7,678 nt of DNA from an archaeon (GTDB lineage: Archaea; Iainarchaeota; Iainarchaeia; Iainarchaeales; CSSED10-239), in the NCBI GenBank assembly GCA_035387745.1, contig DAOOON010000030.1, positions 1 through 7,678 of the forward strand, read 5' to 3'. The position numbers were made by a program, and so were the translations under genes. The notes beneath the pieces are model-generated. The model had not been told where the DNA came from. It did not search any database and saw only the letters and a list, made by a program, of their open reading frames with translations. Within the stretch, counting starts at the first letter, position 1, and each line of letters opens with the position of its first letter. Positions 2,149-7,592 of this stretch are shown here, piece by piece.

Positions 2149-2232
2149 ATGAAGAATATAAATGTAAAGAAAGTAGTTGCTGGCGCAGCAGCACTTGCAT
2201 TAGGTGTAGGTGTTCTTGGCGTAGCAATAGCT
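2149..2232 (+). other. Signal peptide (residues 1-28), predicted cleavage after AIA
   Basis: MKNINVKK forms a basic n-region. VVAGAAALALGVGVLGVAIA forms a hydrophobic h-region ending in an A-x-A motif, followed by GNNNGT. Confidence 0.6.
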
Positions 2233-4404
2233 GGTAACAACAATGGTACAGCATTTGGTTCTGTTGCAAAGACAGATGTTTACAACACAGCAGACATGTC
2301 ACCAAAAGTAACCTTAGTTACCGGAACAGTCGGAGACGATGATGCATGGGCACAAAACATTGCAAACGCAATTGCAAGTAATGCAAAGAGAGAGAACCCA
2401 CTATATGCTTCATGGGTACCATCCGATGGCGAAACAACCACAACAACCGGCGAAGGTAAAGAATTCAAAAAGAACGAAATAGGAGACGATTTTGCGGATT
2501 TAAAACTAGATTATAAAGACTATCCTGCGCTTGGAGACTATAAAGTAAAAGTAAATAATACAAAATTTGGAACAACAGAGATAAAAGTAAAAGATTTCTT
2601 ACTTGTTTCAGGTAATGTTGCTTTTGATCCAGACGAAGATGTAAAAGACTTAACAACAACAATAGAGTCCCAACAATTAAAATACCAGGTAACATTTACA
2701 CCAGGAATAAAAGACGGTGCAGATGATACAGGAAGTCCAGATTTCAAATTCGAGATTATGGGTAAAGAATATACACTAGAAGAATGGGACGGTACATCAA
2801 AAGAATTAACTCTTGTTCAAAATAAGGCAACCACACCATATAGTGAAGGAGATTCTTTTACAGCAGATAATTACACAATAGAAGTAGTAAACATCCTTGA
2901 TTCTGGGGCAGAGAATGAATACGAAGTAGAATTAAGATTAAAGGATGCTTCAGGCACAGTCAAATCTACAGACATATTTGTAGCAGGAGACGAAATATTT
3001 AGTGACTATCTTGATGTAACTGTAGAAATTTCAAAAGTATATTCTAACAGAGTTGCGGTGGTCGCAGGAACTAGTGCAAAATTAACTCTTAAAGACGGAG
3101 ATTTAATTGAGGATTTCCCAGAATCTGAAGATGAGTTATGGGCAGTAGATATGGAGGTTGTTGATAAAGCATTAATAAGCATAACAATCTATAATGATGA
3201 CCCAGATGTAGAATGGAAAAACGAAAACGCTCTAAAAATCGGAGATTCAGCATCATATCCATTTGACTTTGCAAAAGTTAAGTTTGAAGGTCTTACAGAA
3301 GAGGATTCAAAAGCAGTAACTGTTGAAGATGGATATATAAATTATACAGATGCAGATGACGAAGATCACGAAATATTCTTTTACGACTATGCTTCCTGGA
3401 GTAACGGTGTAGAAAGATATACCACAAGAAAAACAATTGATGACAAGAAACTGTACTTTGATTTCAATACAACTTCTGGTAAATTTACTATACAAGAAAC
3501 AAACAGCGACGGGGAATATCTAGATCACGACGGAACTTGGGGTACATTACACGAATACGATATACCAGATAACAATACAATCGACTTTAATGTTGGATTA
3601 TGGAATAATGAAGAGGAACTAGTGACCTATACCATATATACCGATTCAAATACAAGCATTAAAAAAATCGCTGTTGGCTTAAAAAAAGGAGCTACAGGAA
3701 CCATAAACGATTTAGACAAGGACCACACTTGGGAAATTGGTGACATATATGACAGCGTAGATGTTGACAACCACAAAACCGGTATAATGATCGGTGATAA
3801 CGATGATGGCTTTGCAACAGCAGCACTAAAGTCTATGTTTGAATTTATCGTTTCAGATGATACAGAAGGGGCATTTACTGCACATATCGACGCATATACA
3901 GGCAATTTAGTAAATACCAGCAGTACAAAGTACAAAGCAGGTCTTGTTCAAGTTACTTCTGAAGACTTCTATGATTTAGATCAAGAAGAAACAGATGATT
4001 TAAGATGGGCATATACCGATTGGGGCACAAAGTACGAAGTTGATGGTGGTAAATTCACTGCAACAATACCAGAAGAGCAATTATATGCAAAAATCTTTAT
4101 CGGTGCAGGAACAGTAACAACAGGCGGTACAGAAGAGAACCCATATGATGAATACATTATGACTCCAGTAACCGTGTCAGATCTTCTAAAGAAAGACTCT
4201 ATGGCAGCAACCGGTACCTTAATCGTTGTCGGTGGACACCTTGCAAATACAGTAGCAGACGGTATAACAAATACCTTCCTTGCACAAACAGGAGATTACA
4301 TTGTGGGTAAATACTCAAACGGTAATATCTACGTTGCAGGTTGGACAAAGGCAGACACAGGTACAGCAGCAGGCGAATTAGTAACCACAATAAATGGTTG
4401 GTAA
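2149..4404 (+). CDS. Secreted S-layer-like surface (glyco)protein
   Basis: The ORF is 751 aa and has the highest G+C in the window. The N-terminus is a signal peptide. PKVTLVTGTVGDDDAWAQNIANAIAS resembles the N-terminal vvVG..a..D...A..IA block of Methanococcales-type S-layer proteins. LIVVGGHLANTVADGI ... NIYVAGWTKADTGTAAGELV resembles the C-terminal VGGp.AN ... VAG....T..AA..L block (PF05123/PF05124, TIGR01564-like; from memory, not searched). The protein is very acidic, has a TTTTT linker and 8 N-x-S/T sequons, and lacks a C-terminal TM anchor. Confidence 0.7.
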   Translation: MKNINVKKVVAGAAALALGVGVLGVAIAGNNNGTAFGSVAKTDVYNTADMSPKVTLVTGTVGDDDAWAQNIANAIASNAKRENPLYASWVPSDGETTTTTGEGKEFKKNEIGDDFADLKLDYKDYPALGDYKVKVNNTKFGTTEIKVKDFLLVSGNVAFDPDEDVKDLTTTIESQQLKYQVTFTPGIKDGADDTGSPDFKFEIMGKEYTLEEWDGTSKELTLVQNKATTPYSEGDSFTADNYTIEVVNILDSGAENEYEVELRLKDASGTVKSTDIFVAGDEIFSDYLDVTVEISKVYSNRVAVVAGTSAKLTLKDGDLIEDFPESEDELWAVDMEVVDKALISITIYNDDPDVEWKNENALKIGDSASYPFDFAKVKFEGLTEEDSKAVTVEDGYINYTDADDEDHEIFFYDYASWSNGVERYTTRKTIDDKKLYFDFNTTSGKFTIQETNSDGEYLDHDGTWGTLHEYDIPDNNTIDFNVGLWNNEEELVTYTIYTDSNTSIKKIAVGLKKGATGTINDLDKDHTWEIGDIYDSVDVDNHKTGIMIGDNDDGFATAALKSMFEFIVSDDTEGAFTAHIDAYTGNLVNTSSTKYKAGLVQVTSEDFYDLDQEETDDLRWAYTDWGTKYEVDGGKFTATIPEEQLYAKIFIGAGTVTTGGTEENPYDEYIMTPVTVSDLLKKDSMAATGTLIVVGGHLANTVADGITNTFLAQTGDYIVGKYSNGNIYVAGWTKADTGTAAGELVTTINGW

Positions 4405-4418
4405 ATAAGTCTAAAACC

Positions 4419-4465
4419 AAAATTGTAAGCTAATAACTTACAATTTTCTTTTCTTTTTCTTTTTG
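4419..4465 (+). terminator. Hairpin plus oligo-T terminator of the S-layer gene
   Basis: AAAATTGTAAG (4419-4429), loop CTAATAA, CTTACAATTTT (4437-4447). This 11-bp perfect stem starts 15 nt after the stop codon and is followed by CTTTTCTTTTTCTTTTT (to 4465). Confidence 0.65.
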
Positions 4466-4495
4466 AACCGGTTTTACGCGGATTCACGCGCAATA

Positions 4496-4515
4496 TTTAA
4501 AACTCGCTATCAGAC
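4496..4515 (+). repeat. Boundary motif copy 1: TTTAAAACTCGCTATCAGAC
   Basis: The 13-nt core CTCGCTATCAGAC is at 4503-4515. The 20-mer matches 6008-6027 at 19 of 20 positions (C/T at core position 3). It lies 225 nt upstream of ATG 4728. Confidence 0.85.
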
Positions 4516-4548
4516 CATAATCTTACAATCACACAATGCATCATTGTA

Positions 4549-4589
4549 AATGACACAAAATAGAAAAATGTGTCATTACAAATGACACA
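4549..4589. repeat. Three AATGACACA half-sites (direct, inverted, direct)
   Basis: AATGACACA at 4549-4557, its exact complement TGTGTCATT at 4569-4577, and AATGACACA again at 4581-4589. The last two form a perfect 9+9 palindrome with a 3-nt spacer. The larger direct repeats TCATTGTAAATGACACA (4541-4557) and TCATTACAAATGACACA (4573-4589) differ at 2 positions. Confidence 0.7.
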
Positions 4590-4638: not shown

Positions 4639-4692
4639 TTCGTTACTATCGAAAGCTTTGCTTAGTAATCATTCGTTACTATCGAAAGCTTT
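4639..4692 (+). repeat. Two perfect 21-nt direct repeats TTCGTTACTATCGAAAGCTTT, period 33 nt
   Basis: The copies are at 4639-4659 and 4672-4692. Each contains the 8-bp palindrome AAAGCTTT. The second copy overlaps the proximal TATA-like box by 3 nt. Confidence 0.9.
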
Positions 4693-4699
4693 AAATATT
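4690..4699 (+). promoter_or_regulatory. Proximal TATA-like box (TTTAAATATT) of ATPase-1
   Basis: It starts 38 nt before ATG 4728 (32 nt before TTG 4722). No SD is present, which suggests a leaderless or very short-leader mRNA. Confidence 0.5.
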
Positions 4700-4727: not shown

Positions 4728-5987
4728 ATGATAACAAAAGATGAATTAAAAAAAGTAATTTTAGATCAAAGAGAAAGTTTTGAGAAATCAGAAAACATTA
4801 TACAAAGACAAGTAGATTTAAAATCTTATATAAATTATGATTCGATTGTGGTAATAAGTGGGGTAAGAAGGTGTGGTAAATCTACATTATTAAAAATAAT
4901 TAAAACTAAAATAAATCCAAAAGATTACCTTTATTGTGATTTTTCAGACGAAAGATTAAATAATTTAACAATTGCGGATTTACAACTAATATATGAAATA
5001 TTTTTAGAAAAATACGAATCTGGAAAAAAATATTTTTTTTTTGATGAAATACAATATGTAAACGGGTGGGAAAAATTCGTAAATAGATTATACGAAAAAG
5101 AAGAGGCAAAAATATTTGTAACTGGATCAAACAGCTCTTTACTTAGTTCAGAAATATCGTCTGTTTTAACAGGAAGAAACAAAGTAATAGAGCTTTACCC
5201 ATTTTCTTTTAAAGAATACATTACTGCAAAGAAAGAAACAATAGATATAAACAACTTATCAACAAAAGAAGGCATTAAATTAAATAAATATTTTGATGAT
5301 TATTTTAATATAGGTGGATTTCCGCATGTTATAAATACAAATGATGTTCAGATATTAAAAGAATATTACACAAATATAATATATAAAGACATAATTGTTA
5401 GAAAAAAGATAAGGCAAGTAAAAGAAATAAAAGAAATAATCTCATTTTTATTAAATAACATAGGCCAGATAATATCATATAAAAAGATAATTGCTAATTC
5501 AGAAATAAAAAGCACAAGCACAATAAAGAATTTCATAGATTATCTTAATGAAGCATATATTTTATTTACATTATCCAAATATGACAAATCTATCAGAAAA
5601 CAAATACAAAATCCAAAAAAATCATATTTTATAGATATGGGGATGGTAAGAAAAATAAGTGTTAATTTTTCAGAAAATAATGGCTGGTATTTAGAAAACG
5701 TTGTATTTTTAGAATTATTAAGAAGAAATAAAGAAATTTATTATCATAAAAAAGAAAAAGAATGTGATTTTGTAGTAAAGGAAGGCACACAAATTAAAGA
5801 AGCCATACAAGTATCTTATGAAATGAATCAAAAAACAGAAACAAGAGAGATTAAAGGATTAATTAATGCAATAAAAACCTATAATCTTAAAGAAGGAATA
5901 ATTATAACGAGAGACCAAGAAGAAACGAGAATAGTAGAAGGATATAAAATAAAAATAATTCCAATAGCTAAATGGTTATTAGAGTAA
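4728..5987 (+). CDS. AAA+ ATPase, AAA_14 + DUF4143 architecture (COG1373-type 'archaeal ATPase'), paralogue 1
   Basis: Walker A is GVRRCGKST and Walker B is YFFFDEIQ. TGSNSSLL, LTGR and PFSFKEY blocks are present. A central wHTH-like segment reads SYKKIIANSEIKSTSTIKNFIDYLNEAYILF. The C-terminal nuclease-fold-like segment reads LENVVFLEL ... ECDFVV ... AIQVSYEM ... TREIKGL. The tracked ORF begins at TTG 4722; I prefer ATG 4728 (MITKDEL). Confidence 0.85.
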   Translation: MITKDELKKVILDQRESFEKSENIIQRQVDLKSYINYDSIVVISGVRRCGKSTLLKIIKTKINPKDYLYCDFSDERLNNLTIADLQLIYEIFLEKYESGKKYFFFDEIQYVNGWEKFVNRLYEKEEAKIFVTGSNSSLLSSEISSVLTGRNKVIELYPFSFKEYITAKKETIDINNLSTKEGIKLNKYFDDYFNIGGFPHVINTNDVQILKEYYTNIIYKDIIVRKKIRQVKEIKEIISFLLNNIGQIISYKKIIANSEIKSTSTIKNFIDYLNEAYILFTLSKYDKSIRKQIQNPKKSYFIDMGMVRKISVNFSENNGWYLENVVFLELLRRNKEIYYHKKEKECDFVVKEGTQIKEAIQVSYEMNQKTETREIKGLINAIKTYNLKEGIIITRDQEETRIVEGYKIKIIPIAKWLLE

Positions 5988-6005
5988 TTTCTTTTCTTTT
6001 TATTT
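5988..6005 (+). terminator. Oligo-T tract after ATPase-1 (TTTCTTTTCTTTTTATTT)
   Basis: It starts immediately after the TAA stop at 5985-5987 and has no hairpin. It is homologous to the T-tract at 4446-4465. Archaeal termination at oligo-T is established knowledge. Confidence 0.4.
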
Positions 6006-6007
6006 AG

Positions 6008-6027
6008 TTTAAAACTTGCTATCAGAC
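6008..6027 (+). repeat. Boundary motif copy 2: TTTAAAACTTGCTATCAGAC
   Basis: The core CTTGCTATCAGAC is at 6015-6027, 263 nt upstream of ATG 6278. Confidence 0.85.
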
Positions 6028-6189
6028 TAAATAAATGTGCTATTTTTGTCAATTGTTATTGTTCATATGATTGACCAAAAAAGACGTTTTTTGTTCAGCC
6101 AACTGACCATAATTTTTTATTACAAATGCGGCTCATTTATATCTAGAAAAATGTTCTTTAATATCGAATACTTTTGTCTTTAAAGAAAA

Positions 6190-6247
6190 AAGTGCGTGCG
6201 TTTCTCCACCCACTTTCGTTTTTAAGTGCGTGCGTTTTACCACTCGC
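6190..6247 (+). repeat. Two direct repeats headed by AAGTGCGTGCGTTT, period 34 nt
   Basis: The perfect 14-mers are at 6190-6203 and 6224-6237. The tails have diverged (CTCCACCCACTTTCG versus TACCACTCGCTTT) and share CCAC. These are G+C-rich islets in AT-rich DNA. The second copy ends where the TATA-like box begins. Confidence 0.85.
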
Positions 6248-6256
6248 TTTTTAAAT
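6248..6256 (+). promoter_or_regulatory. Proximal TATA-like box (TTTTTAAAT) of ATPase-2
   Basis: The TTTAAAT core starts 28 nt before ATG 6278. No SD is present, which fits a leaderless transcript. Confidence 0.5.
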
Positions 6257-6277: not shown

Positions 6278-7528
6278 ATGTATTCAAAAGAACAATTAAA
6301 AGAAATAATTGTTTCTCAAAAAGAAGCGATTGATTCTCAAGATATAGGACTAATAAGAACAGATTATTTAAAATTATTAAAAGAATCAATTCATCCAAAA
6401 ATAGTCACAATATTAAAGGGCCCAAGAAGAGTAGGAAAATCAACAATAGTTTTACAATTTATAAAAGAGATAAATAACAACTATTATTATTTTGATTTTG
6501 ATGATGAGAGAATAGCAAATTTTAAAACAGGGGATTTTGAAACACTAATGCTGGCTTTTCAAGAGCTATACCAAGATAAAGATTATTTGTTATTTGATGA
6601 AATTCAAAATATAGATTCTTGGGAATTATTTATAAATAGGCAATTAAAACAAAATAAAAAAATAATAATAACTGGCTCAAACTCAAAATTATTAAGTGCT
6701 GATTTAGGCACACATCTAACTGGCAGGCACATAGACATAGAAATATTCCCTTTTTCTTTTAAAGAATACCTTTATGCGAAAGATTTTAAAACTAAACAAG
6801 CATACACTATAAAGGAAAAAGCAGAACTTGAAAAATTATTTAAAGATTATCAAAAAACCGGAGGTTTCCCACAAGTTGTATTTTTTTATGACTATAGGAT
6901 ATTACAAGAACTATACAGAGACATAATTGAAAAAGACACAAAAGATCTAAAAAGTAATCAAAAAATAAAAGACGTTTCCGATTATTTATTATTTAATATT
7001 TCTACATTAGTTTCTTTAAGAAGCATACAGAAAAACTTTGGTTTAAAAAACACAAACGAAGCAAAAGCTATAATAAAAAGACTAGAAGCAACATATCTTT
7101 TCCAATTTATAGAAATTTATTCAAATTCTTATAAGGAAAGAAAAGCAAACCCCATGAAATGTTATTCAATAGATGTTGGTTTAGTAAACAATATTTCAAC
7201 AAAACTAGTAGAGGATAGGGGGCAGCAATTTGAAAATTTAGTATATTTAAAGCTAAGGAAAGAAAATGCACAAATATATTATTATAAAAAGAAAGGGGAA
7301 ACAGATTTTATAGTAATAGATAATAAAAAACCAATACTTGTAGCACAAGCTTGTAGTAATCTAGCAGACAATAAAACCAAAGAAAGAGAAGTAAGTTCTT
7401 TATTAGAATGTATGGATCAATTAAATATTAAAGTCGGGATAATAATAAACAAAGATCTAGAAAAAGAAGAAACAATTGATGGCAAAAGAATAAAGTTTAT
7501 ACCTATAATTAATTGGTTATTAGAATAA
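6278..7528 (+). CDS. AAA+ ATPase, AAA_14 + DUF4143 architecture (COG1373-type), paralogue 2
   Basis: Walker A is GPRRVGKST and Walker B is YLLFDEIQ. TGSNSKLL, LTGR, PFSFKEY and GGFPQV blocks are present, followed by FENLVYLKL ... ETDFIV ... KEREVSSL. It shares its C-terminal ending with paralogue 1 (IPIINWLLE versus IPIAKWLLE). Outside these blocks the two proteins are clearly diverged. Confidence 0.85.
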   Translation: MYSKEQLKEIIVSQKEAIDSQDIGLIRTDYLKLLKESIHPKIVTILKGPRRVGKSTIVLQFIKEINNNYYYFDFDDERIANFKTGDFETLMLAFQELYQDKDYLLFDEIQNIDSWELFINRQLKQNKKIIITGSNSKLLSADLGTHLTGRHIDIEIFPFSFKEYLYAKDFKTKQAYTIKEKAELEKLFKDYQKTGGFPQVVFFYDYRILQELYRDIIEKDTKDLKSNQKIKDVSDYLLFNISTLVSLRSIQKNFGLKNTNEAKAIIKRLEATYLFQFIEIYSNSYKERKANPMKCYSIDVGLVNNISTKLVEDRGQQFENLVYLKLRKENAQIYYYKKKGETDFIVIDNKKPILVAQACSNLADNKTKEREVSSLLECMDQLNIKVGIIINKDLEKEETIDGKRIKFIPIINWLLE

Positions 7529-7537
7529 CTACTTGGT

Positions 7538-7561
7538 TAATAACTTACAATTTCTTTTTTT
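7538..7561 (+). repeat. 3'-flank block shared with the S-layer terminator, plus oligo-T tract
   Basis: TAATAACTTACAATTT (7538-7553) is identical to 4431-4446, which is the loop and right arm of the S-layer terminator hairpin. It is followed by CTTTTTTTT. The left arm of the hairpin is absent here. Confidence 0.7.
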
Positions 7562-7579
7562 AATTTCTAAAATCTCATT

Positions 7580-7592
7580 CTTGCTATCAGAC
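7580..7592 (+). repeat. Boundary motif copy 3: CTTGCTATCAGAC
   Basis: It is an exact 13-mer match to 6015-6027 and lies 52 nt after the ATPase-2 stop. If the spacing rule holds, the next gene should start about 225-263 nt downstream, beyond the window end. Confidence 0.8.

Follow-up and report, generated by a model that had tools for sequence, protein, structure and literature searches.

The stretch of DNA analysed here, which we call the window (7,678 nucleotides, nt), belongs to an AT-rich archaeal contig that is found repeatedly in anaerobic-digester metagenomes. It contains five genes, two of which are paralogues arranged head-to-tail on the plus strand and form the subject of this study together with the DNA in front of them: ATPase-1 (419 aa; 4728-5987, ATG at 4728) and ATPase-2 (416 aa; 6278-7528), whose products are 39% identical. 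ATPase-2 comprises an AAA_14 ATPase, a lid, a winged helix and a PD-(D/E)xK-like domain (DUF4143), and ATPase-1 likewise combines AAA_14 and DUF4143. The AAA_14 domain (Pfam PF13173) is matched with E = 1.3e-36 in ATPase-2 and 1.9e-39 in ATPase-1, the DUF4143 region (Pfam PF13635) with E = 3.7e-16 and 8.7e-21, and the PADLOC profile PDLC04787 of PDC-S01 over its full length with E = 2.5e-95 and 1.3e-115, respectively. By these profile matches both proteins are members of the AAA_14/DUF4143 family (COG1373), the PADLOC candidate defence gene PDC-S01. PDC-S01 has been described as an ATPase fused to a PD-(D/E)xK domain and is reported to be the fourth most common defence-type gene across prokaryotes, with enrichment in archaea; most such defence candidates still await validation (PMC12988326).

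Directly upstream of ATPase-2, the sequence AAGTGCGTGCGTTT is found exactly at 6190-6203 and again at 6224-6237, with the period of 34 nt that a first-pass annotation of the same DNA had reported. The repeat can be extended to 27 nt (6190-6216 versus 6224-6250), of which 23/27 (85%) are identical, and its score within the 130-nt upstream region was reached by 0/200 shuffles. The same annotation had described 'CCAC-containing tails' behind each copy; the tails are present, but they are really the right half-sites of imperfect palindromes. Thus, the distal site, O1 (AAGTGCGTGCGTTTCTCCACCCACTTT, 6190-6216), is an imperfect 26-bp palindrome, AAGTGcGTG-N8-CACcCACTT, and the proximal site, O2 (AAGTGCGTGCGTTTTACCACTCGCTTT, 6224-6250), lies 34 bp downstream of it, centre to centre about three helical turns away. 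In the two units, 8/13 and 7/13 pairs are symmetric. O2 merges with the promoter: its 3′ half occupies the position of the transcription factor B (TFB) recognition element (BRE) and its terminal T residues form part of the TATA box. The core of this box, TTTAAAT (6250-6256, plus strand), is contained in TTTTTAAAT (6248-6256) and starts, as already noted in the first pass, 28 nt before the ATG at 6278, a distance that implies a leaderless or near-leaderless mRNA. Judged from sequence alone, the ATPase-2 promoter therefore has the BRE and TATA elements of an archaeal promoter. Ten contigs of one strain show no variation across the operators.

The ATPase-1 promoter follows the same layout with other letters. 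A 21-nt site, TTCGTTACTATCGAAAGCTTT, with the palindromic core TTCGtTA-C-TAtCGAA, stands at 4639-4659, and an identical copy at 4672-4692, giving a period of 33. The proximal copy overlaps TTTAAATA (4690-4697), the first three bases of which are the final three T of the site. The correspondence between the two promoters in position, copy number and period, and the unrelatedness of their repeats, had both been proposed before and both hold, since no similarity between the two repeat sequences was found. In the ATPase-1 clade (L011:7417, L024, L027, L032 and L149) variants of the site, GTTCGaTACyAaCGAAc, also occur twice with a period of 33. Neither the ATPase-1 nor the ATPase-2 site was found elsewhere in 21 kb of the source genome, which points to local control rather than to a regulon. 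The weaker relative of the ATPase-2 repeat that had been suggested upstream of the putative S-layer gene (1749-1769; 1746-1772 in the extended alignment) matches at 17/27 positions, a value equalled or bettered in 26% of Markov-1 simulations of the window, and is thus not above chance.

Is the twin arrangement a peculiarity of this array? We collected loci with homologues of the ATPases (80 from metagenomes and 80 from named genomes, about 165 in total, covering archaea and bacteria) and searched the 130 nt upstream of each start codon for the ungapped self-match with the highest score, allowing offsets from 20 to 50 nt. Among 84 metagenome loci, a significant upstream repeat with a period of 32-34 was present at 27/87 ATPase-family genes versus 1/120 other open reading frames (ORFs), the sole exception being a neighbour that shares its spacer with an ATPase; the best period was exactly 33 in 36/87 of the ATPase genes. 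In 78 named genomes, repeats were significant at 19/43 archaeal and 23/35 bacterial loci, and their periods were 23 (16 loci), 32-34 (23 loci) or, in one case, 46, with almost none elsewhere. Two periods are hence permitted, 23 and 32-34 bp, with one helical turn between them. A plan of twin 21-bp palindromes, x5-CATT-N3-AATG-x5 with variable outer bases, is fitted by 104/163 loci (examples are TTGTTCATTAGTAATGAACAA, TATACATTGTCAATGTATA, TGGATTGGTAATCCA and GTTTTCATTGACAGTGAAAAC), and the ATPase-1 site also fits this 9-3-9 plan. Each protein clade, taken at about 50% identity, has its own site family. Paired repeats thus stand at the same place in homologous modules elsewhere, in orthologues of 76-77% and 50% identity and in members from both archaea and bacteria, and the first-pass interpretation survives this comparison, which it had itself named as a possible refutation.

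The survey also bears on the view that a promoter segment was duplicated in tandem and has no function of its own. Some pairs are indeed nearly perfect 34-bp tandem duplicates (in L019, 32/33 positions are identical). Neutral duplication is nevertheless scarcely credible, because about 100 loci from two domains of life show the layout with sequences that are unrelated, because neighbouring genes lack it, and because the 21-nt sites of ATPase-1 are identical while the next 12 bases match at only 5/12 positions.

The repeats might alternatively act as nucleic-acid structure, that is, as one or more hairpins in the RNA or as cruciform DNA that terminate or insulate read-through within the array. 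The 72-nt segment 6185-6256 is predicted to fold as RNA with -20.3 kcal/mol (z = -4.15), which is a point against protein-bound operators, the ATPase-1 region gives z = -2.5, T runs stand at the ends of the units, and the genes are arrayed head-to-tail. However, such folding is expected of any twin palindrome. The period is 23 or 32-34 bp over a range of palindrome lengths from 15 to 29 bp, the CATT-N3-AATG core is kept in sequence beyond what pairing requires, the units are near-identical down to their central spacers, and their position is fixed with respect to the downstream TATA box and start codon and not to the upstream stop codon. Scans of the window returned no Rfam match at E <= 1 and no tRNA. 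Altogether we regard a purely structural role as improbable. CRISPR-like and small-RNA readings were dropped because of the number of copies, the palindromic nature of the units, their fixed position at the TATA box and the absent Rfam match.

The placement of the sites is informative about the direction of control. In archaea the end of O2 lies a median of 31 nt (interquartile range, IQR, 30-31) upstream of the start codon. In 19/24 loci it has a canonical TATA-like box (TTTAAATA, TTTATATA) only a few bases behind it, so that O2 takes the place of the BRE and the mRNAs would be leaderless or nearly so. In many bacterial members a -35-like hexamer is overlapped by one site, and the second is placed between the start codon and a -10-like TATAT box, ending a median of 17 nt (IQR 9-34) before that codon. 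As far as layout can be read in this way, both arrangements are of the repressor type. Ptr2 and other known activators of archaea bind upstream of TATA, and since archaeal O1 and O2 also lie upstream of it, their position is compatible with an upstream activating element to which the ATPase would bind, in positive autoregulation or for recruitment of TATA-binding protein (TBP) and TFB. We consider activation unlikely though worth keeping in mind: O2 overlaps the BRE position itself and does not lie upstream of it, and many bacterial members have their sites in the layout of a repressor.

The orthologues of ATPase-2 give a finer view of how the sites change. Those that are 76-77% identical (L018, L013 and L011) and the one that is 50% identical (L019) all carry two units with a period of 34, O1 is in register across the four, and a TTTTTAAA box at the end of the paired units is invariant in 5/5 loci of the clade. 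The invariant skeleton reads AGTG-n-(G/T)TGC-n-(T/C)TT…CC…C(A/G)C-TTTT. O1 and O2 match on average at 25.2/27 positions within a genome versus 19.9/27 between genomes, and at the 15 variable columns they agree in 66/75 cells. Because the variable bases differ between genomes and yet are equal in both units of one genome, the two units have evolved in concert.

Which factor reads these sites? Across 164 loci the ATPase alone is conserved, the biggest cluster of non-ATPase genes being present in 8/164. As the ATPase is the only linked conserved gene, a trans-acting factor that differs by clade would most simply be the ATPase itself, and it has a candidate reading domain. The AlphaFold model of ATPase-2 (pLDDT 92) shows an AAA+ core, a helical lid, a winged helix and a nuclease-like alpha/beta domain at residues 314-409. 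The winged helix-turn-helix (wHTH), predicted with confidence, spans residues 224-297 (coding positions 6947-7168, plus strand) and consists of helices 224-239, 247-253 and 259-271, the last being the recognition helix, and of strands 275-280 and 293-297, between which a segment with basic residues, SYKERKANPMK, occupies 281-292. Taken alone, the winged helix has its nearest folds mostly among DNA-binding proteins (PurR, MarR-family, PadR, Fur and Z-alpha), with weak E-values. The fold neighbours of the whole protein are STAND NTPases (Sr35, Avs4, MalT and SAMD9), Orc1/Cdc6 on origin DNA, and RFC, and a sequence search of the PDB found no relative.

The first-pass annotation had called for a comparison of wHTH residues with repeat sequence. 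We computed mutual information between protein columns and half-site bases over 90 non-redundant pairs, and the highest covariation fell on helix 2-helix 3, where 29-residue windows starting at 243-248 rank 1-2 of 357, while the nuclease-like domain showed the lowest. The high-scoring columns include residues 248, 251, 254, 257, 258 and 260. Within the ATPase-2 clade residue 260 (N/T) varies with base 6 of the unit (C versus A/G) in a set of four sequences only. Spacing gives a second link between protein and site, since period-23 proteins have a median length of 402 aa versus 421 aa for period-33 proteins (p = 2e-13), and the main indel between the classes, of about 12 residues, separates the ATPase core from the lid and corresponds to positions 174-184 of ATPase-2. 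The comparison of per-domain protein identity with site similarity discriminated weakly (rho 0.19-0.30). The covariation, computed without phylogenetic correction, is confounded by phylogeny.

These results are also those by which one can weigh the proposal that the sites serve unlinked, clade-specific regulators encoded elsewhere and not the ATPase. It draws on the resemblance of the ATPase to STAND proteins, whose winged helices often do not bind DNA. However, the dozens of site families would each require a matching factor, the ATPase is the sole conserved gene at the loci, the best site covariation is with its winged helix, and the spacing of the sites follows an indel in the same protein. 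We find such unlinked regulators decidedly improbable.

We therefore lean, with some reserve, towards the view that the two sites form a twin operator pair to which the ATPase binds cooperatively, so that each paralogue represses its own promoter independently of the others. Dimers of ATPase-2, one on each palindrome, would use the winged helix to contact O1 and O2, and they would cooperate across 34 bp on one face of the DNA. Occupancy of O2 would block the access of TFB and TBP and result in negative autoregulation; in bacteria, the equivalent site would cover the -35 to +1 region. ATPase-1 would act likewise at its own sites. Since tandem paralogues of one genome carry different sites, the members of an array could be controlled independently. 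Release of repression might depend on the nucleotide state of the ATPase or on an infection signal, which is speculation. From the sole conserved gene, the winged helix, the covariation and the link between spacing and indel, we infer that each ATPase recognises only its own site.

Several observations weigh against autorepression by the ATPase, in addition to the folding energy and the position upstream of TATA given above. In STAND/AAA+ NTPases the winged helix frequently serves a regulatory purpose and does not read DNA. Shared ancestry confounds both the covariation and the association of protein length with period; the two lend support without being decisive. The ATPase-2 clade site is a G+C-rich outlier with a 9-8-9 plan, compared with the usual 9-3-9 of the family, and its dyad symmetry is weak (4-9/13 pairs across the clade). 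Changes common to O1 and O2 are frequent in this clade, but they are not mirrored between half-sites, so that gene conversion or re-duplication fits them as well as co-evolution with a symmetric dimer. Sites of other classes are present in the ATPase-2 spacer, and insulation of the paralogues is possibly incomplete. Finally, the proposed binding is deduced throughout from sequence and predicted structure.

The spacers of the array provide a record of its history. The homologous scaffold that the first-pass annotation had perceived around the promoters is partly there: a T/C-rich run and, after it, TTTAAAACTYGCTATCAGAC lie 3′ of both the putative S-layer gene and ATPase-1 (4496-4515 and 6008-6027), but only the CTTGCTATCAGAC core of it follows ATPase-2 (7580-7592), and beyond the scaffold the spacers are mosaic. 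Including the T/C-rich run, the scaffold extends over 4443-4515, 5990-6027 and 7549-7592. The exact motif is restricted to loci of the source lineage (L001-L016), and a degenerate copy lies 3′ of an 859-aa gene in L001 (about 15590-15625). The scaffold could be a terminator together with a second promoter, or a recombination junction between cassettes.

Within the spacers there are also sites without a gene of their own. Two orphan pairs of this kind occur in the window. At 4537-4557 (TGCATCATT-GTA-AATGACACA) and 4569-4589 (TGTGTCATT-ACA-AATGACACA) there are twin sites of a further class, with a period of 32, which in L013 are the working promoter of a 420-aa ATPase paralogue (L013:2201). At 6059-6078 and 6091-6109 stand twin sites of another class, TTGTTCA-N6-TGACCAA, again with a period of 32, which in L013 are the promoter of a 398-aa ATPase (L013:3631). 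Such pairs look like promoters remaining after deletion of a cassette, and they may bind paralogues encoded elsewhere in the genome. In addition, a single degenerate site of the ATPase-1 type, TTCTTTAATATCGAATACTTT (6154-6174), had gone unrecorded in the first pass; it matches an ATPase-1-clade site of L011 at 19/21 positions, is followed by the TATA-like CTTTAAAG and lies just upstream of the ATPase-2 sites. The same single-site arrangement is found 5′ of the ATPase-2 orthologue in L011 (about 5735-5760) despite a different gene order. Through this site ATPase-1 could influence ATPase-2. On its cis side, the idea of a shared geometry with a swapped specificity element is sustained and generalised, with a module for each paralogue, whereas strict insulation of the paralogues does not sit well with the orphan sites.

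Related contigs carry three to five or more ATPase paralogues in varying order. Together with the mosaic spacers and the orphan sites, this indicates that cassettes have been gained, lost and reordered, with promoters remaining behind. One may ask whether the twin sites themselves are the elements that move or copy the cassettes, as cassette junctions or iteron-like sequences. The shuffling of arrays between related genomes, the gene-less pairs in the spacers, and the nature of an ATPase that has a nuclease-like domain and Orc1/Cdc6-like fold neighbours would all suit such a role, which we nonetheless judge very improbable. There are only two copies, no Rep, integrase or origin lies nearby, the junction that cassettes have in common has another sequence, namely the T/C run and TTTAAAACTYGCTATCAGAC scaffold, and the sites are fixed to the core promoter. 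Plasmid-type iterons in particular, to which the repeats had been likened, were rejected: the units are twin palindromes and not direct repeats, there is no replicon context, and the window, like the 21 kb of sequence that flanks it, contains neither Rep nor origin features.

The other genes of the window place the array in a wider setting. An AbiEii/AbiEi pair is encoded on the minus strand at 40-1486, and a 751-aa gene at 2149-4404, labelled as S-layer by the first-pass annotation, matched no Pfam or NCBIfam family and is here called putative. AbiEi/AbiEii toxin-antitoxin pairs lie on both sides of the ATPase array (40-1486 of the window, minus strand, and 11391-12903 of L001), and in related contigs they are interleaved with ATPase paralogues. 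The region of the ATPase array is a compact, variable defence island beside a large putative surface-protein gene. A terminator hairpin, AAAATTGTAAGCTAATAACTTACAATTTT, after the putative S-layer gene (4419-4447) is partly duplicated after ATPase-2 (7536-7556), and in L013 the array is followed by a second copy of that gene's 3′ end (4828-4990); from these two duplications the ATPase array appears to lie inside a duplication of the end of the putative S-layer gene.

Some further features were recorded in and around these regions. A G+C-rich insert, GAACCGGTTTTACGCGGATTCACGCGCAA (4465-4492), with ACGCG twice, separates the T-run from the scaffold motif 3′ of the putative S-layer gene; it is missing from the equivalent spacer of L013. 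The long spacer 5′ of the same gene contains a loose direct repeat, AAGGTGCAGTCTTTT (1711-1725) and AAGGCGCACTCTTCC (1749-1763), 11/15 identical and 38 nt apart, with no relation to the ATPase sites. RPA-like and MJ0538-family genes were found on a 68-kb contig, and in L001 GCACTGGACA occurs at 15641-15650 and 19629-19638 in G+C-rich islands directly 5′ of two unrelated genes, the RPA-like one and a 67-aa ORF, respectively at the second and first of these positions, and might represent a further regulatory motif of the source genome. In the nuclease-like domain of ATPase-2 (residues 341-361; window 7298-7360), E341-x-D343 is conserved and the second nuclease motif is Q357-V-C, not (D/E)-x-K, with Q357 invariant in 70 homologues. 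To judge by these residues, catalysis by the domain may be altered or lost in the ATPase-2 clade.

Full-text searches of the literature on DUF4143, COG1373 and PDC-S01 brought up no account of how the family is regulated or of DNA binding by it, and those on AAA_14/PF13173 gave nothing relevant. The twin-site architecture is the first concrete testable molecular property of the family. For each member it predicts a cognate DNA sequence, the domain that probably reads it and how the gene is controlled. Private sites would explain how paralogues can stand side by side without regulatory cross-talk. The matched pairs of winged helix and site also constitute a large natural set for studies on the evolution of protein-DNA specificity, and the same set could serve to build orthogonal regulators for archaea and bacteria.

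A bolder idea, to which we give a small chance, is that the PDC-S01 ATPases are sequence-specific DNA sensors in which the specificity of the winged helix diversifies fast and the promoter sites read out the target of each paralogue. If so, paralogue arrays (two genes here and at least five in L011) would be a collection of receptors driven by ATP and linked to a nuclease, every one of them with another palindrome as its target, for instance in invading DNA, and binding to the own promoter would set the dose of the receptor and mark self. The targets of tens of thousands of uncharacterised defence candidates would then be predictable from genome sequence. Exact copies of the operators in viral contigs numbered 1 for the ATPase-2 site and 6 for the ATPase-1 site; they were treated as chance because they lie in G+C-richer sequence of unrelated contigs without an ATPase homologue, and they lend no support to viral targets.

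How does the proposed autorepression compare with known systems? A parallel in geometry is found in the NrdR boxes of ribonucleotide reductase operons, tandem palindromes 31-32 bp apart from centre to centre that are bound by a nucleotide-sensing repressor. Both systems have two palindromic boxes about three helical turns apart that overlap core promoter elements. However, NrdR uses one consensus across its regulon and across taxa, whereas the ATPase family has a different site in each clade, at its own gene only, and the candidate reader is an AAA+/STAND-like ATPase with a nuclease-like domain. In the operators of phages lambda and 434, palindromes of 17-21 bp are arrayed about 23-24 bp apart and bound by cooperative dimers, with different immunity specificities on a common layout. 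In this they are near the period-23 subfamily and to the analogy with immunity regions drawn in the first pass, but the ATPase loci lack phage context, divergent promoters or a switch, and have two sites, not three. Iterons, too, are repeats that a linked protein recognises specifically, and they show incompatibility groups and autorepression; in contrast, they lie at a replication origin as several direct repeats to which Rep binds as a monomer, while two promoter palindromes and no replication gene are found here.

Other parallels come from the proteins. The C proteins of restriction-modification systems are autoregulated, bind as cooperative dimers and fall into specificity groups that avoid cross-talk, and like the ATPase modules they concern the regulation of a defence gene through two adjacent palindromic sites. 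They are, however, separate small helix-turn-helix proteins whose sites are closer together, whereas the reader proposed here is a domain of the effector and the spacing is 23/33 bp. AbiEi, which is encoded in the same defence island, is a winged-helix protein that cooperatively binds two inverted repeats and represses its own promoter, but it is a separate antitoxin paired with a nucleotidyltransferase toxin (type IV), and the ATPase modules are single genes with other sites and spacing. Orc1/Cdc6 shares the succession of an AAA+ ATPase and a DNA-reading winged helix and gives a top structural neighbour (2qby_B); the fold match is weak (TM 0.31), the sites here are at promoters with no origin, and Orc1 is without a nuclease-like domain. 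Thus, autorepression through twin palindromes is a familiar type of control. What is new is its near-universal, quantised and hypervariable twin-site form in a very common, uncharacterised family of defence candidates, and the fact that the reader domain is apparently part of the ATPase-nuclease-like effector itself.

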